Numbered from the stretch's first letter, positions 25,571 to 43,027 are shown. The stretch: 64,000 nucleotides of DNA from an uncultured Chloroflexia bacterium (GCA_963745295.1 CAVUWG010000003.1:611706-675705); one strand, 5' to 3'. Numbers and translations are program-made. Notes: a model not told the origin generated them from the sequence alone.

Positions 25571-26146
25571 ATGGATCACGACCTGCTGACCGCGCTTCGG
25601 GCCCTGGCGGACCCGACCCGGCTGCGCATCGCGGGTCGGCTCGCAGCGCGGACCGGCGTCGAGGCCGAGCTGGCGGCGGAGCTTGACCTGCCGCCCGCCG
25701 CGGTCCGCCGCCAGCTGGCAAGCTCGTCGAGGCCGGGCTCGTGTCGGCGGGTGGCGGACGGGGGCCCGGCCGTGCGCCTCCGGCTCGAGGCCATCGGCGC
25801 CGTCGGGCCGACGCCTGGCGGAGCTCGAGCCGCGACGCGCGGGCGGACTCGGGGCCGCGGCGTCGGGCCGGCGCGGTGAGCCGCTGCCGACGGACGTCGC
25901 CCGTGTCCTGCGGGGCTTCTTCGAGGCCGATCGCCTGACGACGATCCCGGCCCGCGGGTCCAAGCGGCTCGTCGTCCTGCGCTACCTGCGGGACCGCATC
26001 TTCACCGAGGACCGCGCCGTACCCGGAGAAGGAGGTCAACCAGCGGTTGGCGATCTTCCACCCGGACGTCGCGTCGCTCCGCCGCTACATGGTCGATGAG
26101 GGGCTGCTGACCCGGGCCGACGGGCGAGTACCGGCGGCCGGGCTGA
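25571..26146 (+). CDS. ArsR-type HTH + DUF2087 domain protein (frameshifted)
   Basis: LRALADPTRLRIAG, then RLTTIPARGSKRLVVLRYL, YPEKEVNQRL and HPDVASLRRYMVDEGLL. Confidence 0.82.
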
Positions 26147-26162
26147 GCGGGCGCCGCCGCGG

Positions 26163-26758
26163 TCAGTGGCGGCCGTTCGCGCGGCCTCTGGCCGCCGGTG
26201 TAGTCGCCGCCGACGATCGGCTCGATGAGGCCGTAGCCGCCGTCGTTCCGCGCGTACAGGATCGCGACCTGCTCGTTCTCGGCGTTGACGAAGACGAAGA
26301 AGTCGGTGGCCGAGCTCCTCCATCGCGGTGATGGCGTCCTCCTCGAACATCGGCTCGATGGCGAAGCGCTTGCTCTTGACGACCCGCGACACCTGCGGCG
26401 CCTCGACCGTCCCGTCGGCGACCCGCCGGAGGATGGCCTTCTCCTGCGTCGGGCGGGCGCGCAGGCGCGGCCGCTCCTTGTGCGAGACGGCCTGCCGCTC
26501 GACCTTGTCGACGACGGTGTCGAGGGCGGCCTGGTAGCTCGAACCGGACGCGTGGCTGTGCATGGTCTGGCCATTCACGACCAGCGCGACCTCGACGATG
26601 TGGGCGTCCGACGCGCTCCGGTGGTGTTCGTTGGAGAGCTCGACGATCGCGTCCGTCCGATCGTCCACGAGCCGCGCGATGTGCCCGAGCTTTCGCTCCG
26701 CGTAGGCGCGGACTCGCTCGGGGACCTCGACGTTCTTGCCCTTGACGATGGTTCGCAC
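26163..26758 (-). CDS. hpf: Ribosome hibernation promoting factor, long form (frameshift near 26308)
   Basis: IVKGKNVEV, YQAALDTVVDKVERQ, PMFEEDAITAMEELGH and FFVFVNAE...YGLIEP motifs. Confidence 0.92.
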
Positions 26759-26839: not shown

Positions 26840-27517
26840 TCAGCGTTCGCGGGCCACGGTGATCGCGGAGACGGCCGCGGCGCCACCGTCGAGGAGGACC
26901 GCCGCGCAGGCGGAGAGCGTGGCGCCGGTCGTCATGACGTCGTCGACCAGGACCACCCAACGGCCGCGGACCGGTTCGAAGGCGTCACCCGTTCGCGGGC
27001 GAAACGCCCCCGCGACGTTGGACGCCCGGGCTCGCCGATCCAGCTGGAACTGGGCGGTGGTCGCTTGCCAGCGCTCGAGGGCGTCGATCACGGGCGATCC
27101 GAGCGCGGTGCCCGCCGCCGCGGCCAGCAGGACGGCCTGGTCGTAGCCGCGTTGGGCGGCCCGGTCGCGATGGACCGGCACCGGCACGAGGATGTCGCCA
27201 CCGGCTCCGGCTCGCGTCCAGCGCCGCGCGACGGCCTCGCCGAGCGGTCCGGCCAGACGGCGCTCGCCGCTGTACTTGAGCTGGTGCAGCGCATCACGGA
27301 CGACGCCGCTGAACGGCGCGCACCATTCCAGCTGGAGGAGGCCATCGGGCAGGTCCGCCGGCAGGCCGAGCGGCACCCCGGGCGGCAGGTCGAGCCGGGC
27401 ATCGAGGCCGGGCCGGCAGGCGGCGCAGATCGGCTCGCCTTCCCGGCCGCAACCGGCGCACGACGCCGGGAACGCGAGATCGAGCGCCCGTGCAGCGAAC
27501 TGCCCGATGACCGACAT
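26840..27517 (-). CDS. comF: ComF/ComFC family competence protein (zinc ribbon + PRTase)
   Basis: CAGC...CAAC, LVPVPVH, RGYDQA and VLVDDVMTTGATL motifs. Confidence 0.92.
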   Translation of the reverse strand: MSVIGQFAARALDLAFPASCAGCGREGEPICAACRPGLDARLDLPPGVPLGLPADLPDGLLQLEWCAPFSGVVRDALHQLKYSGERRLAGPLGEAVARRWTRAGAGGDILVPVPVHRDRAAQRGYDQAVLLAAAAGTALGSPVIDALERWQATTAQFQLDRRARASNVAGAFRPRTGDAFEPVRGRWVVLVDDVMTTGATLSACAAVLLDGGAAAVSAITVARER

Positions 27518-27574: not shown

Positions 27575-27994
27575 TCAGGAGGTGGCGGGCCCGTCCAGGG
27601 CGATCACGTCGCCGACGAGCGTGCCGGAACGTTCGATCGTGCCCACCGGGAGCTCGAGGACCCCGTGGGCGCCGCGAACCAGGGGCACGAGCCCCGTCCA
27701 AGTCCGGAGCGCGGGACGGACGGCGACGACACGGCGAGACCCGCCGTCGGCGGCATCGGGTCGGTCGACGAAGACGGCATCGATCGGGAAGCGCATGAAC
27801 ATCATGTGGATGCCGTTGCTGTCGGGCAGCCACAGGCCGGCGTCGGGGGCAAGCGATGCTCGCCCCATCAGGCCCATGAACTTGCCCCACAGGCTCGCGG
27901 CGACCTCCAGCCGGGCGGCCAGGGTGGTCCCGCGCGTGACGTTCCGGGCGACCAGCTCGGTCGCCCGGGTGTCCGGTGCCGTGTCCGTGGTCAG
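27575..27994 (-). CDS. DUF192 family protein (start uncertain)
   Basis: GLMGR, IHMMFMRFPIDAVFVD and VLELPVG motifs. Confidence 0.85.
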   Translation of the reverse strand: MTTDTAPDTRATELVARNVTRGTTLAARLEVAASLWGKFMGLMGRASLAPDAGLWLPDSNGIHMMFMRFPIDAVFVDRPDAADGGSRRVVAVRPALRTWTGLVPLVRGAHGVLELPVGTIERSGTLVGDVIALDGPATS

Positions 27995-28923
27995 ATCGTC
28001 AGGTTCTGGATGATCAGGATGATGGCCGGGCCAAGGATCACGATGAACAGCGACGGGAAGATGCAACCGACGAGCGGGAACAGCATCTTGATCGGCGCCT
28101 TGGCCGCCATCTCCTCAGCCCGCTGGCGCCGCTCGATGCGAAGCTGCTCGGACTGGACCTGGAGCACCTTGGAGATCGACACGCCCAACTGCTCGGCCTG
28201 GATGATCGCGCCGATGAAGTTGGTCAGCGGCTGGACCTCGGTCCTGGGCACGATGTCCCGGAGGGCTTCGCGCCGCGCCTTGCCGACGCGGACCTCGGCC
28301 AGTGCCCGTCGGAACTCGTCGGACAGCGGACCCTTCAGCTTCTCGACGACGCGTCCGAGCGCCGCATCGAAGCCGAGACCGGCTCGCACGGAGATCGTCA
28401 GCAGGTCGAGCGAGTCCGGGATCATCATCAGGATGGCCTTCTGGCGCTTGCGCACCCGGCCACCCAGCCAGAACTCCGGCGCCGTATAGCCGAAGGCCAC
28501 GCCGACAAGCGCCAGGACGAACCCGACGGGGACCGGGAACCCGAGGACCCCGACCACGACGAACAGCAGGAAGAAGATGATGCCGCCGATGATGGCGCCG
28601 AGGGCCTTGATGCCGAGCCAGTCGGCGACGCGAAGTTCGCCGGGGTTGCCGGCCAGGGCCAGGCGTTTCTCGGTGCGATCCGAGAACGACGTGCTGGTGA
28701 CCCGCGCGACGCTGTTCGACAGCCGTGCCGCCAGCGGGCGCAGGGTCCGCTCGATGAACGGAGCCTGGAGCTCGAGTTCCTCGAGGTTCTTGGCCTGCAT
28801 CGACCCGAGCTGGGTGAGGCGGGCCTGGACCGGGTCGACCGGCGAGTTGCCGGCGAGCCCGATGAAGATGAGCAGGATGGCGCCGGCCGCGACGGCCGCG
28901 ATGATGATGGGGAGGATAGGCAT
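27991..28923 (-). CDS. tadC: Tad pilus platform protein TadC (T2SS F family)
   Basis: PDSLDLLTISVRAGLGFD and RRQRAEEMAAKAPIKMLFPL motifs. Confidence 0.92.
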   Translation of the reverse strand: MPILPIIIAAVAAGAILLIFIGLAGNSPVDPVQARLTQLGSMQAKNLEELELQAPFIERTLRPLAARLSNSVARVTSTSFSDRTEKRLALAGNPGELRVADWLGIKALGAIIGGIIFFLLFVVVGVLGFPVPVGFVLALVGVAFGYTAPEFWLGGRVRKRQKAILMMIPDSLDLLTISVRAGLGFDAALGRVVEKLKGPLSDEFRRALAEVRVGKARREALRDIVPRTEVQPLTNFIGAIIQAEQLGVSISKVLQVQSEQLRIERRQRAEEMAAKAPIKMLFPLVGCIFPSLFIVILGPAIILIIQNLTI

Positions 28924-28927
28924 CGGG

Positions 28928-29935
28928 CTAGACCTCGATGTCGACGATCTTGCGGATGATCATGAAGCCGATGAACATCATGAATCCACCAAGAAGCAGG
29001 ATGATGACGCCGCCCGGCAGGCCAAGGACCTCGGGTGGCTTCGTGAACATGGGCGACATGAAGTCCGGGGCGGCGATGAAGAGGAAGCCGGCCAGGCCGA
29101 TCGGCAGGAAGCCGACGACGTAGCCGGACAGCCGCTGCTGCGCCGTGAGGGTCCGGATCTCGCCCTTGATGCGGACGCGCTCACGGATGGTGAACGCGAT
29201 CGAGTCGAGGATCTCGGCGAGGTTGCCGCCGACCTGGTGCTGGATCGAGATGGCCGTGGCCATCAGCTCGAGGTCGTCGGAGCGCACGCGGCGGACCATG
29301 TTCTCGAGCGCCTGATCGAACGGCAGGCCCAGGTTCACCTCGCGGATGACCCGGCCGAACTCCGTGGAGATCGGCGGGCGCGACTCGCGGACGACCAGTT
29401 CGATGGCCTGCAGGAAGGACGAACCGGCGCGCAGCGCGTTCGCGATCAAGGTGATCGTGTCCGGGAGCTGCTTGTTGAACGCCCCGAGGCGTCCGTTCCG
29501 GCGGCGAGCGAGCCAGAAGCGCGGGATGAAGAAGCCGACGAGGCCGCCGATCAGCAGGAAGAGCGGATTGCCCAGCGTCGGCAGCACCACCGACAAGAGG
29601 AGCATCGCGATCGGCACGCCGACGATGCAGCCGGCCCAGATGAGCAGGTATTCCGATGGCTTGAGCTTGAGGTCGGCACGGGCGATCTCGCGCTGCAGGT
29701 TCGCGCCGAAGTCACGATTCTCGACGACCTTGTTCAGGCTCGCGAGCGTCGCGCTCTGCGTGATCATGTCCGCGATGGCGCCTTGGCCGCTGGGAGCGGC
29801 CTTGGCCGGGCGATTCGACGCGTAGCGCTCGAGGCGGTCGGAGATTCCCGATCCGCCCGAGGTGGCGACGCCGACCGCGATCAACAGGATCGCCAAAGCG
29901 GCGACTCCGGCGATCGCGAGCGTCATGGTATCCAC
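28928..29935 (-). CDS. tadB: Tad pilus platform protein TadB
   Basis: QLPDTITLIANALRAG, VGGNLAEILD and EIRTLTAQQRLS motifs. Confidence 0.92.
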   Translation of the reverse strand: MDTMTLAIAGVAALAILLIAVGVATSGGSGISDRLERYASNRPAKAAPSGQGAIADMITQSATLASLNKVVENRDFGANLQREIARADLKLKPSEYLLIWAGCIVGVPIAMLLLSVVLPTLGNPLFLLIGGLVGFFIPRFWLARRRNGRLGAFNKQLPDTITLIANALRAGSSFLQAIELVVRESRPPISTEFGRVIREVNLGLPFDQALENMVRRVRSDDLELMATAISIQHQVGGNLAEILDSIAFTIRERVRIKGEIRTLTAQQRLSGYVVGFLPIGLAGFLFIAAPDFMSPMFTKPPEVLGLPGGVIILLLGGFMMFIGFMIIRKIVDIEV

Positions 29936-29956
29936 GGGCGTGACTCCTTCCGCGGG

Positions 29957-31366
29957 CTAGTAGCTGAAGCCGAAGAGGCCTGGCGGCAGGTTGATGCCCA
30001 TGACCTCGAACTTCTCGACGAACTTGGGCCGGATGCCGGTCGCCTTGAGCCGGCCCTGGATCTTGCCCTCGACGACGCCCGTCTGTTCGAAGACGAACAC
30101 GTCCTGCATGACGATCACATCACCCTCCATGCCCTGGACCTCGGTGATGTTGACGATCTTGCGAGTCCCGTCCTTGAGACGGCTCTGCTGGACGATGAGG
30201 TCGACGGCCGAGGCGACCTGCTCGCGGATCGCCCGCAGGGGCAGATCCACGCCGGCCATCAGGACCATCGTCTCGAGGCGCGACAGCATGTCGCGTGGGC
30301 TGTTGGCGTGACCGGTCGACATCGAGCCGTCATGGCCGGTGTTCATGGCCTGGAGCATGTCCAGGGCCTCACCGGAACGACACTCTCCGACGATGATCCG
30401 ATCGGGCCGCATGCGCAGGGCGTTGCGGACGAGCTCGCGGATCGGGACCGCGCCCTTGCCTTCGATGTTCGGCGGGCGGGACTCCAGCGTCACCACGTGC
30501 TCCTGGCGGAGCTGCAGCTCGGCGGCGTCCTCGATGGTCACGATGCGCTCGTCGTTCGGGATGAACGACGAGAGGACGTTCAGGGTCGTCGTCTTGCCCG
30601 AGCCGGTGCCGCCGGACACGAAGATGTTCAGGCGAGCTTCCACGCATGCGCGCAGGAAGTCGAACATGTCCGCGGTGGCCGTGCCGAACCGGATCAGGTC
30701 GTCGACGGTGAACGGCGACGCCGAGAACTTGCGGATGGTGATGACCGGGCCGACCAATGACAGCGGCGGGATGATTGCGTTGACGCGGGAGCCGTCGGTG
30801 AGGCGGGCGTCGACCATCGGGCTCGACTCGTCGACCCGGCGACCGATCGGCGCGATGATCCGGTCGATGATGCGCATGACGTGGTCGTCGTTCTGGAAGA
30901 CGACGTTGGTCAGCTCAAGCTTGCCGGATCGCTCGATGTAGACCTGGCGCGGGCCGTTCACCATGATCTCGGTGATCGACTCGTCCCGGAGCAGCGGCTC
31001 CAACGGCCCGAGGCCGATGATCTCGTCGGTGATCTGCTCCAGCATCCGGACGCGCTCGGCACGGGTCAGGGCGAGGCCTTCCTCGTCGATGACCTTGCCG
31101 AAGATCTCCTCGATCTGGCGCCGGACCTCGACCTGGTTGGACAGGTCGAGCTTCGGATCCAGGTCCTGGATGACCCGGTTCTGGATCCGGAACTTGACGT
31201 CCCGGAACGACTCGCGGACCGGCGCCTGGCTGGTCAGCCTCGGCGAGGTCGGCGTGGGCGGCGCACCACCCGGTGCGACCGGCAGGTTGGAGCCGGGAGC
31301 GCCCGGCGCAGCTTCGGGTCCCGTGGACCCCGGTCGAGCGCTCTCGATCCGCTTCAAGAGGGACAT
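29957..31366 (-). CDS. cpaF: Tad pilus assembly ATPase CpaF/TadA
   Basis: GGTGSGKTT, TIEDAAEL, ALRMRPDRIIVGE and MNTGHDG motifs. Confidence 0.96.
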   Translation of the reverse strand: MSLLKRIESARPGSTGPEAAPGAPGSNLPVAPGGAPPTPTSPRLTSQAPVRESFRDVKFRIQNRVIQDLDPKLDLSNQVEVRRQIEEIFGKVIDEEGLALTRAERVRMLEQITDEIIGLGPLEPLLRDESITEIMVNGPRQVYIERSGKLELTNVVFQNDDHVMRIIDRIIAPIGRRVDESSPMVDARLTDGSRVNAIIPPLSLVGPVITIRKFSASPFTVDDLIRFGTATADMFDFLRACVEARLNIFVSGGTGSGKTTTLNVLSSFIPNDERIVTIEDAAELQLRQEHVVTLESRPPNIEGKGAVPIRELVRNALRMRPDRIIVGECRSGEALDMLQAMNTGHDGSMSTGHANSPRDMLSRLETMVLMAGVDLPLRAIREQVASAVDLIVQQSRLKDGTRKIVNITEVQGMEGDVIVMQDVFVFEQTGVVEGKIQGRLKATGIRPKFVEKFEVMGINLPPGLFGFSY

Positions 31367-31411
31367 TCGACTACACCCCTTTTCGCCCCGAGGGGCTCAC
31401 TACGGCCGTGT

Positions 31412-32674
31412 TCATCGCCACGCGAACAGGGATTTCTTCTGGGTGGACTTCTGACTGGTTTCCCCGGCGGGGGCGCTCGTTCGCTCGCCAGTGACCGACC
31501 GCGCGAGGCGGAGGATGTCCTGGGAGACCTGCGCCTCCTTGTTTGACAGGTAGAACGGTACTCCTCGATTGAGCGCATAGACGACGCTGCGACCGTCGCT
31601 GACGATCGTCTCGTCGACCTTGCGGCCGATCGATTGTTCGACGTCCGCGACGCGGATGCCCAGCGCTGAGTCGGCGCGATTGAGGATCAGGCGGACCTTT
31701 CCCGTCTCGTATCCGAGCTGTTGGGCGACCTCCAGGAAGAGGCGCATGTTCTTGATACTGGTGATTTCGAGACTGAGCATCGTCAGGATCACATCGGCGA
31801 TATCGAGGATCGCCAGCGTGGTGTCGTTGAAGAACGCGGTGCAATCCACCACGACGAGGTCGTGGTTCCGCCGGAGCGTCTCCAGGACCTTGCGGACGGC
31901 GGCCGGCGTGATCAGCTCGGCCGTCTCGGGAGTCGGCGGGGCCAGCAGGACCCGGACTCCGGAGGTGTGGTCGATGACGAACATGTCGAGCGAGTCGAGC
32001 TCGTTCGCCTCGAGTTGCGGCAGCAGGTCGGCGATCGACTTGCTCTTCGGATTCAGGTTGAGCAGGACCCCGACGTCGCCGAACTGGAACGACGCATCGA
32101 CGAGCACGACCTTCTTGCCGAGGTCGGTGGCCGCGGCGACCGCCAGGTTGACCGCGACGGTCGTTCGACCGACGCCGCCCTTCGGGCTGAAGACCGCGAT
32201 GATCCGGCCCGGGTCGCCGCCGCCCTCGCCGCCCGATCCACCCGACCCCGAACCGGCCGCGGCGACCGGCACGGCCGCCATGCGGCTGGCCTTGTCGCGT
32301 TCGCGCGAGTGGACCTGTCGGATCGAGGCGGTCAGCTCGTCGCTGCTGAACGGCTTGACGAGGAACTCGCGGGCCCCGGCGAGCATGGATCGTCGGAGGT
32401 AGTCCGCTTCGCCCTGGACCGACATCATCACGACGGCCGCGGAGGGGAGGGTCGCGGCCATCTGTTCGGTGGCCGTGATGCCGTCCATGTCCGGCATGTT
32501 GATGTCCATCAGGATGATGTCGGGGGTGAGCTTGCCGGCCATGTCCAGCGCCTCGCGTCCGGACGAAGCGGCACCGACCACGTCGATGTCGCTCTCGAAG
32601 CTGAGCAGCTTCGTGAGGTGATCGCGGGTCTCGGGGATGTCGTCTACGACGAGGACGCGGATCTGGTCGGCCAT
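31412..32674 (-). CDS. cpaE: CpaE/TadZ pilus localisation protein: receiver domain + MinD/ParA ATPase
   Basis: Receiver with VVDD, LMD, MMS and VKP; deviant Walker A KGGVGRT. Confidence 0.9.
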   Translation of the reverse strand: MADQIRVLVVDDIPETRDHLTKLLSFESDIDVVGAASSGREALDMAGKLTPDIILMDINMPDMDGITATEQMAATLPSAAVVMMSVQGEADYLRRSMLAGAREFLVKPFSSDELTASIRQVHSRERDKASRMAAVPVAAAGSGSGGSGGEGGGDPGRIIAVFSPKGGVGRTTVAVNLAVAAATDLGKKVVLVDASFQFGDVGVLLNLNPKSKSIADLLPQLEANELDSLDMFVIDHTSGVRVLLAPPTPETAELITPAAVRKVLETLRRNHDLVVVDCTAFFNDTTLAILDIADVILTMLSLEITSIKNMRLFLEVAQQLGYETGKVRLILNRADSALGIRVADVEQSIGRKVDETIVSDGRSVVYALNRGVPFYLSNKEAQVSQDILRLARSVTGERTSAPAGETSQKSTQKKSLFAWR

Positions 32675-32702
32675 CTCGCTCTGATCTTGTACTTCGATAG
32701 GT

Positions 32703-32773
32703 GACCGGTCCGAGGACCGGTCGGTGAGGCCGGGACTACGACGGGCGCGGGACCTTGTGGGTCCGCCGCGCCC
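32703..32773. other. Two hairpins in the cpaB-cpaE spacer
   Basis: GACCGGTCC-GA-GGACCGGTC (32703-32722) and an imperfect GGGCGCGGGACC...GGTCCGCCGCGCCC (32743-32773). Confidence 0.45.
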
Positions 32774-32826
32774 GCCGCGTCTGGGCTTGCTTGTCTCAGC
32801 TCGGCCGACGCTCGGCCGCGCGGGGG

Positions 32827-33729
32827 TTACGGATTGGCGGGGGTCACGGTCTCGACGACTTCCGGCGGGACGACCCCGTAGGTGTCGACGAGGGTCTTGA
32901 GGTTGACGCCGGTCGTCGTGTTCGGGAGCGGCACGACGGCCTCGTTGGTGGTCGGATCGATGAAGTCGTCCGGTGACCGCAGGATCAGGGTGATCGAGGA
33001 GTCCAGCTGGGCGAACTTGATGACTTCGGCCTGCTGGGCATCGACCGCGAGGATCACGATCTGCTGCTGGCCCGTGAGGGCCGTGCCCGGCTGCGACGGC
33101 GTGCCGCCGGTGTCGGTGCCGCTGCCGTCGTCGGTGGTGGTGGTCGACGCGTCCGGCGGCAACAGCGTGCCCAGGACCTGCATGCCCTGCAGCAGGATCT
33201 TGACGCTCGTGCTGTTGAGGCCGCTGACGACGGTGACCGAGTCATCGGCCGGGTTGACCGTGATGACCGGGAACTTGTCGCCGGTGACGCCCGAGATCAG
33301 GTCCACGTAGTCGCCGGTCTTGATGACCGTGCCGACACCGGTGACCTGGTCGACCTGGACGGCGACGGCACGAAGGCCGGGCGGCGTCACGATGTCGAGG
33401 ATCTCGCCCTGGGCCCCGCCCGTGATGGTGGTCGAGGTGATCTGGGCGCCGGTGGCGACCGGCTCACGCGCGATCTTGCCGACGACCTGGGAGGTCTCCG
33501 AGAAGGCGCCCGGGAGGATCCCGTCCAGCGGGAGCTCCGTCCGCGTCAGCGAGGACGCTTCGATCCGCGAGGACAACGGGATGTCGGTCGTCGCGATGAG
33601 GACGAATCCGGTGGTCGGCGGCTTGTTCGACGTGTCGCTCGGCTGCCGCACGAGCAGGAGGATCCCGACGAACGCGATGACCGCGAGGAAGACCCCGACG
33701 AGCAGGACCAGACGATTAGAGCGCTTCAA
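32827..33729 (-). CDS. cpaB: Flp pilus assembly protein CpaB/RcpC
   Basis: N-terminal TM, SAF-like domain, PGLRAVAVQVDQVTGVGTVIKTGDYVDL, LILRS; likely TTG start behind GGGGAG. Confidence 0.9.
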   Translation of the reverse strand: MKRSNRLVLLVGVFLAVIAFVGILLLVRQPSDTSNKPPTTGFVLIATTDIPLSSRIEASSLTRTELPLDGILPGAFSETSQVVGKIAREPVATGAQITSTTITGGAQGEILDIVTPPGLRAVAVQVDQVTGVGTVIKTGDYVDLISGVTGDKFPVITVNPADDSVTVVSGLNSTSVKILLQGMQVLGTLLPPDASTTTTDDGSGTDTGGTPSQPGTALTGQQQIVILAVDAQQAEVIKFAQLDSSITLILRSPDDFIDPTTNEAVVPLPNTTTGVNLKTLVDTYGVVPPEVVETVTPANP

Positions 33730-33936
33730 GTTGTTACTCCCCGAGAGGCTTGTGACAGGTGGCACCACTGTAGCACCGGCCATGAGGCTCGCGACTATAC
33801 GAAAGGCCTAGGACCATTAGGAGGAAACGGCAGGAATCCATGCGTGACGCAAGGTTTCCTGCAAGGTTCTTGTCGGGGTTCGCGCCGCCACACGAGGGTG
33901 GTGCGTGAGGGTGGTGTGCGGGTCCCTGAACATGTC

Positions 33937-33963
33937 GACAGCCCGCCATTTCGGCGGGCTGTC
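33937..33963 (-). terminator. Hairpin downstream of flp pilin 1
   Basis: GACAGCCCGCC-ATTTC-GGCGGGCTGTC, perfect 11-bp stem. Confidence 0.6.
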
Positions 33964-33992
33964 AGGTGACGGACAGTGGACGGTCGGGATCC

Positions 33993-34184
33993 CTATGGAC
34001 TTACCGAATCCAGCTGGCTGCCGATGACACTCAGCTTGTCGCTGACCTGGCTTCCCATGAAGATGAGGGCGACGATCGAGATGATGGCGATAAGGGCGAG
34101 GATAAGAGCATATTCGGCCAGGCCCTGGCCATCGACCTGACGGATTCGGTCGACGATCCGGACCAGACGCGGGTGCGCGGTCAT
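33993..34184 (-). CDS. flp: Flp family type IVb pilin (copy 1)
   Basis: G|QGLAEYALIL motif, hydrophobic helix, AAGGAGGT RBS. Confidence 0.92.
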   Translation of the reverse strand: MTAHPRLVRIVDRIRQVDGQGLAEYALILALIAIISIVALIFMGSQVSDKLSVIGSQLDSVSP

Positions 34185-34248
34185 CTTGGTACACCTCCTT
34201 TCCACGAGGCTCGCTAGCGGGCACCGACCACCCGTGGCCGGTCGCTCC

Positions 34249-34276
34249 ACCATAGGTCGAGGGGGGTAGGTGTCAA
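34249..34276 (-). promoter_or_regulatory. Sigma70-type promoter of flp copy 1
   Basis: TTGACA-N16-TATGGT on the minus strand. Confidence 0.7.
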
Positions 34277-34323
34277 TAGCCCGAAGGTTGGCCCTGTGGA
34301 CGTGCGCGCACCACAACAGAGAA

Positions 34324-34351
34324 AGGCCGCCGAGCCTGGGGCTGGCGGCCT
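34324..34351 (-). terminator. Intrinsic terminator after flp copy 2
   Basis: AGGCCGCC...GGCGGCCT stem followed by TTCTCTGTT on the minus strand. Confidence 0.6.
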
Positions 34352-34373
34352 CGCTGGTCTGGGGAACGCGACA

Positions 34374-34541
34374 CTAGATCGAGTCGCCGACCGTGCTGAT
34401 GATCGTGCTGACCTGGGTGCCGAGGAAGATGAGGGCCACGATCGCGACGATCGCGATCAGAGCGAGGATCAGCGCGTATTCGGCGAGACCCTGGCCGTCT
34501 TCTCGGCGGAAGGACGAGATGAGAGCATGCATCGAGGACAT
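34374..34541 (-). CDS. flp: Flp family type IVb pilin (copy 2)
   Basis: MSSMHALISSFRREDG|QGLAEYALILALIAIVAIVALIFLGTQVSTIISTVGDSI; GAGGAGGT RBS. Confidence 0.93.
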   Translation of the reverse strand: MSSMHALISSFRREDGQGLAEYALILALIAIVAIVALIFLGTQVSTIISTVGDSI

Positions 34542-34600
34542 CTGTCTGGGGTACCTCCTCTCTGGGGGACTCCACGAGCGCGGGGCTCGTGGGACGTGCC

Positions 34601-34630
34601 ACGGTACGGGTGGTTCCCGATGGCTGTCAA
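34601..34630 (-). promoter_or_regulatory. Sigma70-type promoter of flp copy 2
   Basis: TTGACA-N18-TACCGT on the minus strand. Confidence 0.6.
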
Positions 34631-34763
34631 ACACCCACCGATCCGGGTCCGGCCCGCCGGCCTCGAGCCGGCCGCGTCCCCACGCCTGGACCGCCGCGAC
34701 CAGCTGCTGTCGGGTGCTCGGCCGGGCCCTCGACCGGGCGGCGGCACCCAGGACGCACAACGA

Positions 34764-34797
34764 AAGACCGCCGGGCCTCGAGAGGCCCGGCGGTCTT
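34764..34797 (-). terminator. Intrinsic terminator after flp copy 3
   Basis: AAGACCGCCGGGCCT-CGAG-AGGCCCGGCGGTCTT, perfect 15-bp stem. Confidence 0.75.
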
Positions 34798-34822
34798 GGT
34801 TTCGATCCGTGAGGACCGACGA

Positions 34823-34993
34823 CTAGATCGAGTCGCCGACCGTGCTCAGGATGGTGCTGACCTGTCCGCCGAGGAAGATCAGGGCGACGATCGCGACGAT
34901 CGCGATAAGGGCGAGGATCAACGCATACTCGGCGAGACCCTGGCCTTCCTCGTCCCGGCGAAGGGAAGCGAGGAACGAAGTAAAGAGCGCCAT
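34823..34993 (-). CDS. flp: Flp family type IVb pilin (copy 3)
   Basis: MALFTSFLASLRRDEEG|QGLAEYALIL...STVGDSI; AGGAGG RBS; TATAGT -10 at 35044-35049. Confidence 0.93.
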   Translation of the reverse strand: MALFTSFLASLRRDEEGQGLAEYALILALIAIVAIVALIFLGGQVSTILSTVGDSI

Positions 34994-35166
34994 GTGGCAG
35001 CCTCCTGGATGAGTACTCACCCTCGAAATCTGAGGGCTTCCCCACTATATGGAGGGCCGCTTCGGGAAAGCACTAGCACGATGGTACCGAACGTGCCCGG
35101 ACTTCCCGGACGGGCGTCTGTTGCTCGCACGCCACGTTCGCGCTCGGTTCGGGTCCGGGCCCCGTC

Positions 35167-35334
35167 TCAGGTCCCGCCCGTGGCCGCGTCGATGGCCTCG
35201 CCGATCGTGGCGAGGACGTCCGCCACGGTCCCGCCGAAGACGCCCAGGATGATGATCGTGAACACGACCGTCAGGGCGAGGATCAGTCCATATTCGACGA
35301 GGCCCTGACCGCGGATGCCAGGCACGCGGCCCAC
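35167..35334 (-). CDS. Divergent Flp family pilin (copy 4; absent from the ORF track)
   Basis: Manual translation: MGRVPGIRG|QGLVEYGLILALTVVFTIIILGVFGGTVADVLATIGEAIDAATGGT*. Confidence 0.85.
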   Translation of the reverse strand: MGRVPGIRGQGLVEYGLILALTVVFTIIILGVFGGTVADVLATIGEAIDAATGGT

Positions 35335-35335
35335 G

Positions 35336-36598
35336 TCATCGCTCCGACGGCACCGGCGCCTCGGCCACGAGGTGCAGCTCGGAACCGTCCTCGGACAGGT
35401 CGGCGAGGATGCCGAGCGTGGTCGCCCGGCTCTCGATCTCCTGCCAGGTCGTCACGGGCAGGGCGACGATCGCGTCGCGTCGCGCCGTCTCGGCCGCGTC
35501 GCGGGCATCGGCCCGACGATCTTCCATCATCGCCGCGAGCGCCGGGGGGAGCTCCGTGCCGGTCGGCGGGGCCTCGACCGGGGCGGCAGGTTCCGCGGCG
35601 GGCTTGGCGTCCTTGTCCTTGTCCCGGACGGCCGTGACCCGGGCCTCCACCTGGTCGGCCCAGTCGAGACGCATCGTGATCCGGGTGGGGGAGCGCTCGA
35701 GGTAACCGACCAGGGCCTCGTCGAGCATCCGGAACAGCCCGCTCTCGAGGTCCATTGGCAATCGCCGGTCCTGGCCCATGGAGTCGAAATCGACCGCGAC
35801 ACCGGCCTTTCGCCCGCGCTCGCGCGCGGCGCGCCGCAAGGTCGGCACCAGCCCCAGGTCGTCGAGGACCATGGGCCGGACGTCGAAGATGAACGTCTTG
35901 GTCGCCTCCAGCGTGCGCTGGACCATGCCGATCAGCTGGTGGACCTCGCCGAGCGCGAGCGCGGGGTCCTTCGCCACGAGGCGCTCCACGATCTGCGCCT
36001 GGAGCACGATGTTCGTCAGGCTCTGGGCCGGGCCGTCATGCATCGCTCGGGAGATCTCGCGCCGGAGGTCCTCCTGGCTGGTCAGGACCAGGCGTGAGAC
36101 CGCCGGCGGGATGACGACATCGCCGCCGTCGGTCGTCGCGGCCTTGCGCCCTGCCCGGGTGGCCGATTGCGGCGTCGAGATGGACGTCGCCGGATCCATG
36201 GCGGCGACGGCGTCGGCATAGGCGGAGATCGACTCGCGGTGGCGAGCGAGGGCGCGGCGCTTGCCTTCGAGGACCTCGACCTGCGATTCCATGAGGGCGG
36301 CCCGCTTGGTGAGCGCGGCGAGCTGCGTCCCGAGCTCGGCAAGCTCGGTCGCCTCTCCCTGCTTGGTCATCGCCGCGAGCTTGTCGGCGGCCGTGCTTCG
36401 CCGGCTCTCGTGGCGCGCGGCCTCGGTGCCGGCCTGGGTGACGAGCAGGTCCACCTCGCCGAGTTCGCTGTCGAGGCGTTCGACTTCTGCCGACAGCCTG
36501 GCGGACAGCTCGGCCAGGTTCTGCGGGGGCGTCGTCGACGGCGACTCCCTCGTCGGGAGCTCGGTCTCCGAGGTGCTTGTCGTCGATGCGTCGGTCAT
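35336..36598 (-). CDS. DegS-like soluble HisKA_3 protein with degenerate ATPase domain (pseudokinase)
   Basis: Coiled-coil N-terminus and intact EISRAMHDGPAQ H-box; N box reads EALVGY, and there is no DxGxG. Confidence 0.8.
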   Translation of the reverse strand: MTDASTTSTSETELPTRESPSTTPPQNLAELSARLSAEVERLDSELGEVDLLVTQAGTEAARHESRRSTAADKLAAMTKQGEATELAELGTQLAALTKRAALMESQVEVLEGKRRALARHRESISAYADAVAAMDPATSISTPQSATRAGRKAATTDGGDVVIPPAVSRLVLTSQEDLRREISRAMHDGPAQSLTNIVLQAQIVERLVAKDPALALGEVHQLIGMVQRTLEATKTFIFDVRPMVLDDLGLVPTLRRAARERGRKAGVAVDFDSMGQDRRLPMDLESGLFRMLDEALVGYLERSPTRITMRLDWADQVEARVTAVRDKDKDAKPAAEPAAPVEAPPTGTELPPALAAMMEDRRADARDAAETARRDAIVALPVTTWQEIESRATTLGILADLSEDGSELHLVAEAPVPSER

Positions 36599-36639
36599 CG
36601 ATCGGCGGCGGTCGCGGGAGTCGCTGAGGTCGTGATCGG

Positions 36640-37386
36640 TCAGTCCTCTGGCATCCGGATCCAGCCCTGGCGCATCGCGTACACCACGGCCTGCGTCCGG
36701 TCGTTGACGGACAGCTTGCGCAGGATCGAGCTCATGTGATTCTTGACCGTCTGCTCGCTGATCGACAGCGCGTAGGCGACCTGCTTGTTGGTCATGCCCT
36801 GCGCGATGTTGTCCAGGATCTCGACCTCACGGGGCGAGAGCGGCGCGAAGATCGGCGCGGCCTCCTGCCCGTACACGGCGAGCTCGCGGAACTCCTTGAG
36901 GACGCGCGAGGCCACGGCGGGCTTGGCGAAGACCTTGTCGTTGATCAGGTACTCCCCGGCGACGACCCGACGGATGATCGTGACGAGGTCGTCGGGCCCG
37001 ACATCCTTGAGGATGAAGGCCGCGGCGCCCGCCTTGATCGCGTCGAAGAGCGCATCCTCGTCCTCGGTCTGGGCCAGGACGATGATCCCGGTCGAGGGCA
37101 GCTCACGCTTGATCCGTTGGGTGGTCTCGATGCCGCCGGGCGCCGGCAGCGAGAGGTCCATGAGGACGATGTCCGGCGAGTTCTCGAGGGCGCGGTCGAT
37201 GGCGCTCCGCGAATCGTCCGCCTCGGCGACGACGTCCAGGTCGGGCTCCCGGCTCAGGATGTTGGCGATCCCCACCCGGAACAGGGCGTGATCGTCCACG
37301 ATCAGGATCCGCGTCCGGTCCCCGATGTTCCTTCGATCGGGGCCGCCCCGACGTCGCTCAGGACCGCCGTAGTCGACTGCGCTCAT
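36640..37386 (-). CDS. NarL/DegU-family response regulator
   Basis: Receiver (IVDD, LMD, LKD) plus LuxR HTH LSPREVEIL...TNKQVAYALSISEQTVKNH. Confidence 0.95.
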   Translation of the reverse strand: MSAVDYGGPERRRGGPDRRNIGDRTRILIVDDHALFRVGIANILSREPDLDVVAEADDSRSAIDRALENSPDIVLMDLSLPAPGGIETTQRIKRELPSTGIIVLAQTEDEDALFDAIKAGAAAFILKDVGPDDLVTIIRRVVAGEYLINDKVFAKPAVASRVLKEFRELAVYGQEAAPIFAPLSPREVEILDNIAQGMTNKQVAYALSISEQTVKNHMSSILRKLSVNDRTQAVVYAMRQGWIRMPED

Positions 37387-38498
37387 CTGCTCTCCCTCTG
37401 CTCCGCCCCGTCATGGATCGGGATCGCCAGCCGGACCACGGTGCCCCCGTCCGGTCGCGATCGTATATCCAGGCGAGCGCCGATCAACTCGGCGCGCTCG
37501 CGCATGAACTGGAGGCCGAAGTTGCTCCGGCCCCTGGCTGCCACCGCCCCGGCATCGAAACCGCGGCCATCATCGCGCACCTCCAGGGTCCAGTCGTCGC
37601 CGTCGAGCGACGTGCTCACGGTCACGTGGCTGGCTGACGCGTGCTTGCGAACATTCTGAAGCGCCTCCTGGGCCACCCGCAGGGCCACCGTCCGCGCACG
37701 ATCGTCGAGCGCGGTGCTCGGGGCGGCCAGGTCGGTCGAGATCGAGAGCCCGGTCAGGGCGTTGACGTTCTCGACCGTCTCCATGATGGCCCCATCGAGA
37801 CCCAGTTCGTCGAGCAATGGCGGGCGGAGCTGCGTGATGAACGCTCGAAGGTTGCCCAGCTCGCGCCGAAGCAGCTCGCGCAGGATGGCCAGCTCCGTGT
37901 TGGCGACCTTCGGGTCCGATGCGAGCACCCGCTCGATGTACTCGACCTGGAAGATCGAGTTGCTCAGCACCTGGGCCGGCCCGTCATGGATCTCCTGTGC
38001 GAGCCTGGCGCGTTCGGCCTCCTGCGCCTCGACGATCCGCATCTGGATGTCGCCCGAGGTCGAGGGGCCGCCAGCCTCGTTGACGAGCGTCACGTCGCCG
38101 CGCTCCATGAAGAGCCACGTCCGTTCGAGCGTGCTCTGGGCCAGTTCCAGCTTGGCCAGCTCGGTCTGATGGCCACCGAGTTGCTCGGACAACTGGTCGA
38201 CCTCGGCGCGGAGGTTGCGTTGCATGGCATCGTCGGCCCCGGCCTCGGCCGCGCTCGCGGCCAGATCGGATTCGGTCGAACGGGTCGGTCGCGTTCCGAC
38301 CTTGCGCGTCGAGCGTTCGATGCGGTCCAGCTGGTCGCGCAGGTCCTGCCAGTGAATGAGCGCGTCGGAGTAGGCCTCACGATATCGCTCCCGGATGCCG
38401 CGAAGCGTATTGGCACTGTAGCCAACGGCCGCGCTCGCTTCCGCATGAAGCCCGTCGAAGCGGTTGTCACCGGACTGCGTCCCGGTCCGTGCTTCCAT
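37383..38498 (-). CDS. DegS-like soluble sensor histidine kinase (HisKA_3)
   Basis: LAQEIHDGPAQ, QEALQNVRKHA, DDGRGF and FGLQFMRERA motifs; no TM segment. Confidence 0.93.
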   Translation of the reverse strand: MEARTGTQSGDNRFDGLHAEASAAVGYSANTLRGIRERYREAYSDALIHWQDLRDQLDRIERSTRKVGTRPTRSTESDLAASAAEAGADDAMQRNLRAEVDQLSEQLGGHQTELAKLELAQSTLERTWLFMERGDVTLVNEAGGPSTSGDIQMRIVEAQEAERARLAQEIHDGPAQVLSNSIFQVEYIERVLASDPKVANTELAILRELLRRELGNLRAFITQLRPPLLDELGLDGAIMETVENVNALTGLSISTDLAAPSTALDDRARTVALRVAQEALQNVRKHASASHVTVSTSLDGDDWTLEVRDDGRGFDAGAVAARGRSNFGLQFMRERAELIGARLDIRSRPDGGTVVRLAIPIHDGAEQRESR

Positions 38499-38524
38499 GT
38501 GCGCCGGAGTATAGGGGTCGCCTT

Positions 38525-40159
38525 TCATGGACAGGCGATCTCGAAGGCCCGGACGTTGGCCAGGGGATCGGCGACACCGGCCGGTCCCGGACCGAGCGCC
38601 AGCTCGTGGAAACAGTCGACATCGGGCCCGGGCTGATCCAGGACCGCCGGCCAGCCGCCGTGGTCGTCGCCGATGACGATGAGCAGCCGGGTGCCTGCGA
38701 AGCCCGGATCCGAGGCGAGATCGACGATGTCACTCGGTTCCTCGGCCGGCAGGGCAAGGGCTCGAACGCCCGGGATCTCGGTCAGCCAGATCGGGAAGTT
38801 CGTGATGACCGGTCCGGTGGACGCATCGAGTGGATGACCGATGACGGCCATCCGTCGGGCCAGCTCGTCGTACAGCTCGGCGGTCCCCCGCGATCCGGAC
38901 CCGAACGAGGGCAGGAGCATCACCGAGAACAGGACCGAGCCGAAGATGCCGAGCAGCGCTCCGAGCCAGGCGACCGGCCGCGTCCAGCCGAGGCGGACGC
39001 CGAGCCGGGCGATCCCGGCATCGAGCGCCAGGAGGGCGGACAGGACGAGCAGCACGTGGACGGGTCCGGCGGCGTGCAGGAACGTGCCCCACGTCGTCGC
39101 CACCGGGAACGCCAGGCTCGTGATCAGGAAGGTGACGAGGCCAAGGACGACGACCGGCCGGACCGCTCGATCGCGACCCTGCCACGGGAGCGCCAGGAAC
39201 CCGATGATCGAGATCGGCAGGCCGGGCAGGAGCAGCACCGAGAACAGGTTGTGGGCGATCCCGTCGACGCGCATCTCGAGCAGCCGGGCCGGCCCGACGG
39301 CGAGATACCTCGAGAGGGTCGGCGGATCGTTCCAGGCGAAGATGTCGAAGCCGGTCACGGACAGCGCGTTGGCGGCTGCCTGGCCCGGCAACGGGCTGCC
39401 GAAGACCTGCCAATCACGCCACGCCCAGGGCGCGAAGACGAGGAGCGCGACGACGCCGGCAACACCGATGAGCCGGATCCGCTCCATTCGCGTGGTCGCC
39501 GGAGCCAGCCAGGCGATCACGGCCCAGGTCAGCCCGATCCAGATGGCCTCGTTGCGGGTCAACGCGGTCAGCCCGATGAGCACGCCGAGCCCGACGACCC
39601 GCGGATCGGTCAGCCGCGCGCCGCGCGGGTCGCGCGCGATCCTGGTCATCAGCAGGCAGGCGGCGAGCGCGAGCGCCGCGAACGACATCGTCGAGTCCGG
39701 CAACGACGAATGCAGCAGGAGTGGCAGGTAGAACGCGCACGTCAGGCCGGTGCCGAGCGCCAGGGTCCGGGCCCGGCCGATGGGCAGGCCCCGTTCCTCG
39801 GCGACGTCGGCGGCGAGCCGCCAGGCCAGGACGGGCACCAGCGCCCCGATCAGGACCGACGAGACCTGGGCGGCCGCGAAGGTCGGCCCGAGGATGGCCA
39901 TGGGGATCGCGGCCAGGAAGGTCGGCAGCGGCAGCCAGACCTCGAACGCAGGCCGTGGGAAGACCAGCGGCGGCGTCTGGTAGCTCCACAGCGCGTCCGA
40001 CACGAGGCCGCGGCCATCGAGCATGTTGCGCGCGACGCCGACGTAGTAGGCCGTGTCCTCGGGCTTGGGGAAGACGATCTGCGACGCGAAGATCGCGCGC
40101 GTCACGAGCGCGACGATGAAGACGAGCCCGACCGACAGGAGCATCTCGCGACGGGTCAT
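38525..40159 (-). CDS. GT39/ArnT-like GT-C membrane glycosyltransferase
   Basis: EDTAYYVGVARN loop motif, many TM helices, ALTRNEA; paralog of the neighbouring gene. Confidence 0.78.
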   Translation of the reverse strand: MTRREMLLSVGLVFIVALVTRAIFASQIVFPKPEDTAYYVGVARNMLDGRGLVSDALWSYQTPPLVFPRPAFEVWLPLPTFLAAIPMAILGPTFAAAQVSSVLIGALVPVLAWRLAADVAEERGLPIGRARTLALGTGLTCAFYLPLLLHSSLPDSTMSFAALALAACLLMTRIARDPRGARLTDPRVVGLGVLIGLTALTRNEAIWIGLTWAVIAWLAPATTRMERIRLIGVAGVVALLVFAPWAWRDWQVFGSPLPGQAAANALSVTGFDIFAWNDPPTLSRYLAVGPARLLEMRVDGIAHNLFSVLLLPGLPISIIGFLALPWQGRDRAVRPVVVLGLVTFLITSLAFPVATTWGTFLHAAGPVHVLLVLSALLALDAGIARLGVRLGWTRPVAWLGALLGIFGSVLFSVMLLPSFGSGSRGTAELYDELARRMAVIGHPLDASTGPVITNFPIWLTEIPGVRALALPAEEPSDIVDLASDPGFAGTRLLIVIGDDHGGWPAVLDQPGPDVDCFHELALGPGPAGVADPLANVRAFEIACP

Positions 40160-41817: not shown

Positions 41818-41888
41818 GGCCGGTGCAGCGTAGCACCGGGTTCCACGCACGCCGACCAGTACGATTCGGCTAGTCCGCGCGCTCGCGC

Positions 41889-42977: not shown

Positions 42978-43027
42978 CGCCGAAGTATCCGTCCTGAGGC
43001 GAGCCGACGACCCCGTACTATGCGTCG

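Follow-up and report, generated by a model that had tools for sequence, protein, structure and literature searches.

A predicted kinase-dead DegS-type protein in the phosphosignalling module of a Flp/Tad pilus operon from Limnocylindria (Chloroflexota)

The Locus and Its Genes

The window analyzed in this study is a stretch of 64,000 nt from an uncultured Chloroflexia bacterium (GCA_963745295.1, CAVUWG010000003.1:611706-675705). Its minus strand carries a co-oriented run of genes that starts with a GT-C-type glycosyltransferase gene and continues with a HisKA_3 histidine kinase (HK1), a NarL-type response regulator, a second HisKA_3 protein that is predicted to be kinase-dead (psHK), four Flp prepilin genes (flp4-flp3-flp2-flp1), the genes cpaB-cpaE-cpaF-tadB-tadC, comF and hpf (Table 1). 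The block is an operon for a Flp/Tad (type IVc) pilus of Limnocylindria (Chloroflexota), and a DegS/DegU-like phosphosignalling module that includes two receivers stands at its head. The assignment to this type of pilus is based on the presence of prepilins with the processing motif, CpaF, TadB, TadC, CpaB/RcpC and CpaE/TadZ. A first-pass annotation, made by a model from the sequence alone, had proposed the gene order from HK1 to tadC, and every element of it was found on the same strand. Its end at position 38498 corresponds to the second in-frame ATG of HK1, which is given here as 37383-38528.

The stop of the GT-C gene and the start of HK1 overlap by 4 bp, as do the stop of HK1 and the start of the regulator, while 41 bp lie between the regulator stop and the psHK start. 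The gap of 1 bp that had been noticed between the psHK stop and flp4 was recovered by reading the open reading frames (ORFs), which leaves exactly one base before the GTG start of flp4. The host stretch has a GC content of 70%, and all genes of the block have a GC content at third codon positions of 0.84-0.93, which is the coding signature of the genome. The latter amounts to 3.3 Mb in 7 contigs with a marker completeness of 82.6% and contains a single tad locus. Contigs assembled from four RNA libraries, which derive from relatives and are at least 88% alike, cover HK1, the regulator, psHK and flp, and one contig of 175 nt from a relative bridges the psHK/flp4 junction; neither observation is proof of transcription, DNA carry-over is possible, and the parts without coverage carry no meaning.

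psHK Retains the Phosphoacceptor Helix and Has Lost the ATP-Binding Motifs

The psHK protein was found to possess the His and the DxxxQ motif that define the dimerization and histidine phosphotransfer (DHp) domain of the HisKA_3 type, while it lacks the N, G1 and G2 motifs of an ATP-binding domain, and Pfam scans gave no HATPase_c match even at E <= 1. Alignment with intact relatives revealed that the His box MHDGPAQ is kept, the Asn of the N box is replaced by Gly, the DxGxG motif of G1 is gone and an insertion of approximately 20 residues takes the place of the G2 region. The description of this protein as having a dead ATPase is therefore borne out.

The same pattern extends to the orthologues. 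A psHK search with one genome per species yielded 396 stretches encoding relatives, and the best 80, all from Chloroflexota metagenome-assembled genomes, were taken with flanks of 10 kb. MHDGPAQ was present in 80/80 orthologues and DxGxG in 0/80 of their C-terminal parts, and at the position of the N-box Asn, located by pattern in 71 of the 80, Ala (40), Gly (29) or Ser (2) was found. The reading frames of the orthologues are intact. Mean pairwise identity reaches 0.84 in the DHp domain, 0.50-0.64 in the parts of the domain resembling a catalytic and ATP-binding (CA) domain and 0.19 in the linker, and seven positions of the former ATP-lid region (P351, P352, A353, L354, M357, R361, and W385) are newly invariant among 52 sequences.

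In an AlphaFold2 model based on 52 orthologues (predicted local distance difference test, pLDDT, 77), residues 28-132 form a long coiled-coil hairpin and residues 165-244 the hairpin of the DHp domain, in addition to an alpha/beta domain. The modeled CA-like domain superposes on the CA domains of DosS (Z 15.8, root-mean-square deviation 2.4 Å, 118 residues) and VraS (Z 15.5, 2.0 Å, 120 residues). When searched alone, it found just 204 matches among 1.84 billion representative proteins (E <= 0.001), indicating that the ordinary HATPase_c likeness is gone. According to the model, then, the Bergerat/kinase ATPase fold survives and the nucleotide-binding motifs do not, and the earlier proposal of a pseudokinase holds in the sense of a protein with a retained His and a folded, motif-less CA domain. 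The high DHp identity, the intact frames, the new invariant lid positions and the distinct CA-like domain all argue that psHK is a maintained and specialized protein, functional but no kinase, and not a decaying gene.

Given the failure of the ATP-binding domain, the database label "sensor histidine kinase DegS" overstates the identity of psHK, which should not be filed as a kinase; the JGI name for its orthologues is "DegS". No match of psHK to the DegS N-domain (PF05384) was obtained at E <= 1. Residues ~25-160 align with Chloroflexota kinases, of which four intact ones were scanned against PF05384 (cut-off 27.6 bits): two scored above the cut-off (39.4 and 47.0 bits), one below it (15.4 bits) and one gave no match.

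Conservation of the Block in Related Loci

Synteny was counted among the psHK-bearing loci whose flanks were long enough. Upstream of psHK the regulator was present in 72/72, HK1 in 65/66 and the GT-C gene in 64/64 loci. A gene of the flp4 type follows psHK in 76/77, with a median of 47 nt between the matches. Further downstream cpaB (63/63), cpaE (59/59), cpaF (59/59), tadB (58/58), and tadC (57/57) were found, and comF follows tadC in related loci. The kinase-regulator-pseudokinase-flp-tad block is kept in these relatives, contrary to the first of the doubts that had been attached to its proposed significance, namely that it might not be conserved next to tad.

Among 24 genomes of the same genus, 18 carry a near full-length psHK orthologue, one shows pieces at contig ends and five give only weak DHp matches; these five assemblies consist of 190-430 contigs and were thus not counted as losses of psHK. 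Genome G119, which belongs to the same family and encodes CpaE with no psHK match, was considered as a case of psHK loss and rejected, as the assembled contig breaks off 2.1 kb before cpaE on its upstream side and the absence is an assembly gap.

psHK Descends From a DegS-Type Kinase Linked to flp/tad

When 301 Chloroflexota genomes were searched with psHK, matches were obtained in 110 (E <= 1e-20). Full-length matches that include the degenerate domain were confined to the window's family (f1; 14/15 genomes), while in other families the matches span psHK residues ~25-316 with 32-38% identity, within open frames of ~340-400 amino acids. A total of 28 of these loci were fetched, and the N-box Asn and G1 were intact in 27/27 DegS-type ORFs recovered from them, the ORF of L106 having escaped the filter. 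The genome tally of psHK matches (110 of 301) and that of receiver-bearing CpaE (REC-CpaE) include the unpublished genomes G212, G266, G309, and G184, from which no loci were used.

A tree of DHp domains placed the 15 sampled psHK sequences in one clade (100/100) within the DegS-type clade (98/93), and the HK1-type kinases, among them those encoded upstream in L116 and L117, outside the latter. The tree is based on 105 columns and drew long-branch warnings, and so it was used for coarse placement only; the sister of psHK (L119, 80/68) is poorly settled, and three of the four own-genome kinases intended as outgroup were dropped because the His pattern missed their site. Read in this way, the sequences indicate that psHK derives from a DegS-type kinase whose intact form is a neighbor of flp/tad genes across Chloroflexota, and that the kinase-dead state is specific to the window's family.

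The linkage to pilus genes is evident in the 28 DegS-type loci, 23 of which have such genes within a 20-kb stretch: 15 carry cpaE-cpaF-tadB-tadC downstream and eight carry Flp-motif ORFs, most of these directly 3' of the kinase. The remaining five loci had neither within 20 kb. A NarL regulator lies just upstream of the DegS-type kinase in 13/28 loci, and comF and hpf are often 3' of tadC. Seven loci (L100, L108, L109, L112, L113, L114, and L121) combine a DegS-type kinase and a REC-cpaE with no NarL regulator, an arrangement which suggests that the CpaE receiver is likely the ancestral partner of the DegS-type kinase. At the level of genomes, REC-CpaE was detected in 164/301 (E <= 1e-40). Both REC-CpaE and a DegS-type gene occur in all or nearly all genomes of families f5, f7, f9, f13, f17, f26, and f30, and neither occurs in f2, f12, f19, and f20, so that the two track each other by family with the exceptions of f3, f14 and parts of f16 and f25. 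Since the genomes are related and not independent, no statistic was drawn from this tracking.

The circuit had been proposed to be independently evolved. For the degenerate architecture this appears to be correct, because the DHp tree places psHK in the HisKA_3/DegS lineage and hence its origin apart from ChpT and Spo0B. The wiring itself is not a novelty of this lineage, given that an intact DegS-type kinase by flp/tad and REC-CpaE is widespread in the phylum.

Intact, Dead and Absent: A Natural Series

Three related arrangements were observed. Loci L116 and L117 of family f34 contain an HK1-type kinase, the regulator, a DegS-type kinase, and cpaB, cpaE and the following genes, with both kinases intact. 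The window's family has the same HK1-regulator-DegS-type trio, in which the DegS-type member is kinase-dead. The sister family f3 of the same class shows the order GT-C-HK1-type-regulator-flp-cpaB-cpaE-cpaF-tadB-tadC with no DegS-type gene in 5/5 loci, and a search of its genomes gave a DegS-type match in 0/15 (E <= 1e-20) and REC-CpaE in 15/15. Its HK1-type kinase and regulator are ~39 and ~77% identical, respectively, to the proteins of the window. With an HK1-type kinase in place, the DegS-type protein seems to have become dispensable as a kinase, being kept for another purpose in one lineage and dropped in the other. As f3 runs HK1, the regulator, flp and tad without a DegS-type gene, psHK is best seen as an accessory and not as an obligatory relay step.

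HK1, the Regulator and the CpaE Receiver

In HK1 all four motifs (His box, N box, G1, and G2) can be read, both in the translation and in the alignment with relatives, and the mean pairwise identity of its DHp domain is 0.71. Neither HK1 nor psHK contains a hydrophobic segment, the maxima of hydropathy over 19 residues being 0.73 and 1.08, respectively, against a threshold of 1.6; the view that the two HisKA_3 proteins are soluble is thus upheld. HK1 is not a hybrid kinase. For psHK to act in the manner of ChpT, its phosphate would have to come from one of the two receivers. An exceptional case is locus L063, where HK1 is reduced to a C-terminal remnant of the last ~40 codons (L063:9000-9300, between the glycosyltransferase gene and the regulator), while the regulator, psHK, and tad are kept. 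No HK1 orthologue turned up elsewhere in this genome with the query used.

The regulator is highly conserved, with mean pairwise identities of 0.99 for the helix-turn-helix domain and 0.86 for the receiver (75 sequences). Its receiver keeps the acidic pair DD, the acceptor D, and the K, and the conserved Thr/Ser is replaced by Ala (A105). This Ala was found in at least 98% of the 75 family sequences, as opposed to Thr in 13/13 regulators of other families. The regulator of f3 has Ala too, and its acidic pair DD is changed to DG (4/5) or DE (1/5). It was considered whether the Thr-to-Ala change arose together with the dead kinase, but this idea was rejected because f3 shares the Ala and lacks psHK. 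Phospho-signalling through the regulator may be atypical across the class.

The claim of an intact CpaE receiver was confirmed by its Response_reg match (E 2.6e-28) and by the acceptor residues, all of which are present. Specifically, D11, D12, D57, S85, and K107 are invariant in an alignment of 47 sequences, 14 of which belong to other families, and the mean pairwise identity of the domain is 0.85. Two more proteins of the same genome combine a receiver with a ParA/MinD-type domain and are ~35% identical to CpaE over nearly the full length (G000 C4:376499-377626 and C4:319590-320723); no cpaF lies nearby. Specificity residues were also read by eye in the DHp and receiver alpha-1 helices of a few lineage groups, with nothing usable emerging.

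The flp Genes and Their Upstream Regions

The four prepilin genes encode proteins of 55-63 amino acids with the motif G/QGL(A/V)EY followed by a hydrophobic helix. Their Flp_Fap matches (E 1.1e-5 to 3.8e-3) are under the Pfam cut-off, as is usual in such short proteins. Flp-motif genes most often come in fours: this number was found in 42 of the 79 sources counted, which comprise the window and 78 of the 80 related loci, some of them truncated. Judging from their flanks, flp1, flp2, and flp3 look like separate transcription units, each with a promoter-like box before it and a hairpin after it: flp1 is preceded by TTGACA-16-TATGGT at 34276-34249, flp2 by a TTGACA-type box and followed by a terminator-like hairpin at 34324-34337, and a perfect 16-bp hairpin with a T-rich tail lies 3' of flp3 (34764-34797).

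A k-mer count over 226 flp upstream regions (window positions 33800-35166 and loci L013-L092) recovered a TTGACA box ~90 nt before the start codon in 100/226 regions and the palindrome TGAGTACTCA, located in the 5' leaders of flp3-type genes, in ~40/226. Apart from these, the count gave just the terminator hairpins of preceding genes, and no binding site for the regulator could be claimed from it.

A Proposed Role for psHK and Its Alternatives

We favor the reading that psHK is an accessory protein acting through its DHp domain on the regulator, on the CpaE receiver or on both, as a phosphatase or as a sink or shuttle for phosphate, and give it a probability of approximately 0.55. Every phosphotransfer step, the targets of the regulator and the effect of CpaE phosphorylation on pilus assembly are inferred here and not observed. 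HK1 would be the sole ATP-using protein among the signalling proteins of the block and would phosphorylate the NarL/DegU-like regulator, which would form the transcription arm with cpaB and the flp genes, the latter under their own promoters, as its targets. It might also phosphorylate the CpaE receiver, which would then represent an assembly arm. psHK would dock onto one or both receivers through the DHp helix with its His and DxxxQ; the latter would remove phosphate, or the His would take phosphate and hand it on, between the regulator and CpaE. The retained DegS-like coiled-coil N-domain could provide the controlling input, making psHK a signal-controlled accessory valve on the circuit. The DxxxQ beside the His is the phosphatase motif of HisKA_3 kinases, as has been worked out for NarX (PMC3510030).

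Complex prediction lends this some weak support. Two copies of psHK (residues 160-420) with the CpaE receiver scored 0.42, whereas the best of three controls scored 0.00; the runs shared 93% or more of their contacts, and the partner was modeled with a pLDDT of at least 84. The mark that this score reaches was reached by 58/80 solved complexes and by 2/110 mismatched pairs, yet scores of up to 0.60 that reach it comprise only 7/80 of the solved complexes and both of the passing mismatches. The modeling of a pseudokinase:CpaE-receiver complex had been suggested as a check. Several points weigh against the accessory role or soften the case for it. Complexes of DesK and DesR have already been solved, and the prediction for psHK and CpaE may reflect likeness to these only, that is, the memory of solved complexes. 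The synteny counts come from loci retrieved with psHK and describe the constancy of the block around psHK, not the frequency of tad without it. The strict invariance of His187 slightly favors phosphotransfer over a pure phosphatase; HisKA_3 kinases that lack the His keep phosphatase activity. The whole helix is invariant, however, and the point is not decisive. The Ala at the Thr/Ser position of the regulator, in the window's family and in f3, suggests that the phospho-chemistry may be unusual. Finally, L063 keeps psHK without a working HK1, meaning that psHK is not strictly dependent on HK1.

The first-pass annotation had pictured a kinase-pseudokinase phosphorelay, and a true four-step relay following the pattern of Spo0F/Spo0B or SdrG/PhyT would indeed couple transcription and assembly in series, with phosphate passing from HK1 to one receiver, to His187 of psHK and to the other receiver. 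That two His proteins and two canonical receivers lie within one conserved operon agrees with such a scheme, as do the His kept in 80/80 orthologues, the DHp plus degenerate CA architecture of ChpT, Spo0B, and PhyT, and, weakly, the complex prediction described above. We nevertheless consider a relay unlikely. It is dispensable in close relatives, since f3 has HK1, the regulator, flp, tad, and REC-CpaE and is devoid of a DegS-type gene (5/5 loci, 0/15 genomes), families with a single intact DegS-type kinase presumably serve both receivers directly, and the protein to which HK1 is coupled in translation is a complete transcription factor and not a single-domain shuttle receiver. The earlier picture is partly supported; psHK as an obligatory intermediate is not. 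It is slightly less likely still that the two bolder statements hold together, namely that the CpaE/TadZ receiver of Chloroflexota is a phospho-switch of Tad assembly served by a dedicated soluble DegS-type kinase, and that in Limnocylindria this kinase became a histidine phosphotransferase within a His-Asp-His-Asp relay from HK1 through the regulator and psHK to CpaE, which would link pilin transcription to assembly and would have arisen independently of Spo0B, ChpT, and PhyT.

The ability of f3 to work without psHK is also the reason for ranking the accessory phosphatase or shuttle above the obligatory relay, and two further explanations rank lower than both. psHK and HK1 could form a split kinase or heterodimer, pairing DHp to DHp, in which the ATPase of HK1 labels His187 in trans or psHK blocks HK1 as RetS blocks GacS, and psHK would give the one kinase complex a second channel for output or input. 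The two proteins share an operon, the HisKA_3 type, a coiled-coil N-terminus and solubility, an identity of 39% was measured across 80 residues of their DHp regions, structures of RetS and of the GacS DHp domain were among the fold matches (Z 13.1), and an HK1-type gene co-occurs with a DegS-type gene that is dead in f1 or absent in f3. This pairing is nonetheless improbable, as the HK1-type and DegS-type proteins form separate lineages in the DHp tree, both kinases are intact side by side in f34, and L063 has psHK with HK1 deleted. We regard as equally improbable that psHK works independently of phosphorylation, either as a stoichiometric anti-activator or scaffold on the unphosphorylated regulator or CpaE, or as a slowly decaying relic. 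PhyT, as far as its description goes, also restrains PhyR through a complex with unphosphorylated PhyR (PMC5898713), the Thr-to-Ala change of the regulator hints at atypical phospho-signalling, and the DegS-type gene is wholly lost in f3. A relic, however, is hard to reconcile with the intact frames, with a DHp identity above that of the working HK1 (0.84 vs. 0.71) and with the new invariant positions in the former lid region, while mere binding would not require the His and DxxxQ that are kept in 80/80 orthologues.

Tad Machinery and Neighboring Genes

The coordinates of the genes and their domain matches are given in Table 1. Candidate genes of the Tad pathway located elsewhere in the genome include a prepilin peptidase, for which two Peptidase_A24 matches above the cut-off were obtained on contigs C6 and C2, and nine TadE matches, seven of them in G000 C3:800923-807457 and two in C4:174429-175176, all outside the window. 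The TadE cluster on C3 lies ~125-130 kb past the end of the window on the same contig. No secretin RcpA/CpaC turned up among the operon genes in the domain scans, and no genome-wide search for it was made. Chloroflexota are generally not known to have an outer membrane.

Downstream of the pilus genes, a string of tadC, comF, in some cases a second cpaF-like gene, and hpf recurs in many Chloroflexota loci. The second cpaF-like gene lies between comF and hpf in L108, L109, L112, L113, L114, and L121, which represent several other families (58-63% identity to the CpaF core), and the window has none. Natural transformation of Micrococcus luteus is reported to depend on Flp pili (PMC4322843), and with comF directly after tadC the Tad pilus of this locus may, by analogy, be used in DNA uptake.

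Upstream, three neighboring ORFs comprise two membrane glycosyltransferase genes, PMT_2-like and GT87, and an unassigned ORF between them. A glycosyltransferase homologue upstream of the regulator or kinase was found in 64/64 family loci and in several distant families too. These glycosyltransferases could possibly glycosylate the pilin or the envelope and be co-expressed with the signalling genes.

Table 1. Genes of the signalling and pilus block and their neighbors (positions are counted from the first nucleotide of the window).
Feature	Position	Strand	Remarks
hpf, ribosome hibernation factor gene	26036-26758	-	3' of comF
comF-family gene	26840-27517	-	Directly 3' of tadC; TIGR00201 E 2.2e-22 (below cut-off); Pribosyltran and DZR_2 matches
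tadC, T2SSF platform protein	27991-28923	-	T2SSF E 9.8e-21
tadB, T2SSF platform protein	28928-29935	-	T2SSF E 1.5e-20
cpaF/tadA, secretion ATPase	29957-31366	-	T2SSE E 7.8e-66; TIGR03819 346.8 bits (slightly below cut-off 373)
cpaE/tadZ, receiver (residues 1-125) and ParA/MinD-type ATPase	31412-32674	-	Response_reg E 2.6e-28; AAA_31 E 9.6e-16; CbiA E 2.4e-9
cpaB/rcpC	32827-33783	-	TIGR03177 114.4 bits (cut-off 71); RcpC E 1e-13; SAF E 7.2e-7
flp1, Flp prepilin, 63 aa	33993-34184	-	Flp_Fap E 1.3e-3
flp2, Flp prepilin, 55 aa	34374-34541	-	Flp_Fap E 3.7e-4
flp3, Flp prepilin, 56 aa	34823-34993	-	Flp_Fap E 1.1e-5
flp4, divergent Flp prepilin, 55 aa, GTG start	35167-35334	-	Motif G/QGLVEY; Flp_Fap E 3.8e-3
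psHK, predicted kinase-dead DegS-type protein	35336-36598	-	HisKA_3 alone, E 3.9e-11; approximate residues: coiled-coil N-domain 28-132, DHp with His187 and DxxxQ 165-262, CA-like 263-416
NarL/DegU-like response regulator (REC and GerE HTH)	36640-37386	-	Response_reg E 2.9e-25; GerE E 1.3e-22
HK1, soluble HisKA_3 kinase, coiled-coil N-terminus	37383-38528	-	HisKA_3 E 4.8e-15; HATPase_c E 6.9e-14 (Pfam)
GT-C-type glycosyltransferase gene (PMT_2-like)	38525-40297	-	4-bp overlap with HK1 start
Unassigned ORF	40307-41836		
GT87 gene	41889-43043		

Comparison With Known Systems

A full-text literature search, which left most subscription journals uncovered, returned no description of a HisKA_3 pseudokinase, of a DegS-type/tad linkage in Chloroflexota or of phosphorylation of the CpaE/TadZ receiver. 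As far as our searches reached, psHK would be the first conversion of this kind found for the HisKA_3/DegS class, and the occurrence of the same gene as intact, dead or absent in related families constitutes a rare natural series for the change from a kinase to a phosphatase or phosphotransferase. The string of a DegS/DegU-like module, flp, tad, comF, and hpf is widespread and apparently undescribed in Chloroflexota, a phylum with few genetic models. A canonical CpaE receiver beside a soluble kinase, which in seven loci has no second receiver in its vicinity, also offers a route to test phospho-control of Tad assembly, beyond that of pilin transcription.

The module resembles DegS-DegU of Bacillus subtilis in that a NarL-family protein is partnered by a soluble kinase, the N-domain of which is a coiled coil and the DHp domain of which is of the HisKA_3 type; two of the four intact Chloroflexota relatives scanned exceed the cut-off of the Pfam DegS family. 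It differs in that psHK is without a PF05384 match or ATP motifs, in being tied to a Tad pilus and a receiver-bearing CpaE, and in the presence at the window locus of a second HisKA_3 kinase of another lineage, HK1. The best structural match to the DHp and CA domains of psHK is DesK of the DesK-DesR system (Foldseek E 7.6e-8; Z 15.1-15.6), which was also found by profile search in the sequences of the PDB (E 5e-4) and has the HDxxxQ box in common with psHK. DesK is the HisKA_3 prototype, with structures solved for the kinase, the phosphotransfer and the phosphatase state. It senses temperature in the membrane, however, and its ATP site is functional, whereas psHK is soluble and without N, G1, and G2.

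Similarly to psHK, the proteins ChpT (Caulobacter), Spo0B (Bacillus), and PhyT (Sphingomonas) combine a DHp domain with a conserved His and a CA-like domain without ATPase motifs. PhyT, with its degenerated ATPase domain, is described as using its His to carry phosphate over from SdrG to PhyR, as restraining PhyR, and as being encoded beside its regulator (PMC5898713). In contrast to these proteins, psHK is derived from the HisKA_3/DegS lineage, keeps a large sensor-like N-domain and is absent in close relatives, and its operon in the window is without a hybrid kinase or a single-domain shuttle receiver. The 50 fold matches listed for the psHK model included neither ChpT nor Spo0B, a result with which likeness is still compatible. 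By analogy psHK may work like these proteins in design, with phosphotransfer as a prediction only, while it is not a member of their family.

The CpaE protein shares with TadZ/CpaE of Aggregatibacter, Caulobacter, and Eubacterium rectale the combination of a ParA/MinD-type ATPase and an N-terminal domain of the receiver fold, as well as the location of its gene between cpaB and cpaF. This receiver-like domain is usually regarded as atypical and unphosphorylated. TadZ proteins are stated to typically carry an atypical receiver domain (ARD) used for protein contacts (bioRxiv 10.64898/2026.07.08.737194). The N-domain of the window's CpaE falls outside the ARD definition, as all its phospho-acceptor residues are present, and it is set apart from the studied systems by the invariance of these residues and by an adjacent kinase gene.

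In the analogy drawn by the first-pass annotation, CckA-ChpT-CtrA of Caulobacter controls the Flp pilin gene, pilA, and the two systems have in common phosphosignalling on Flp pilin expression, here as proposed, with a degenerate kinase-like protein involved. They differ in the DHp family, in the type of regulator (OmpR in Caulobacter, NarL in the window), in the hybrid kinase of Caulobacter and in the position of the signalling genes, which in the window lie inside the pilus operon. The likeness is thus a functional analogy at most.

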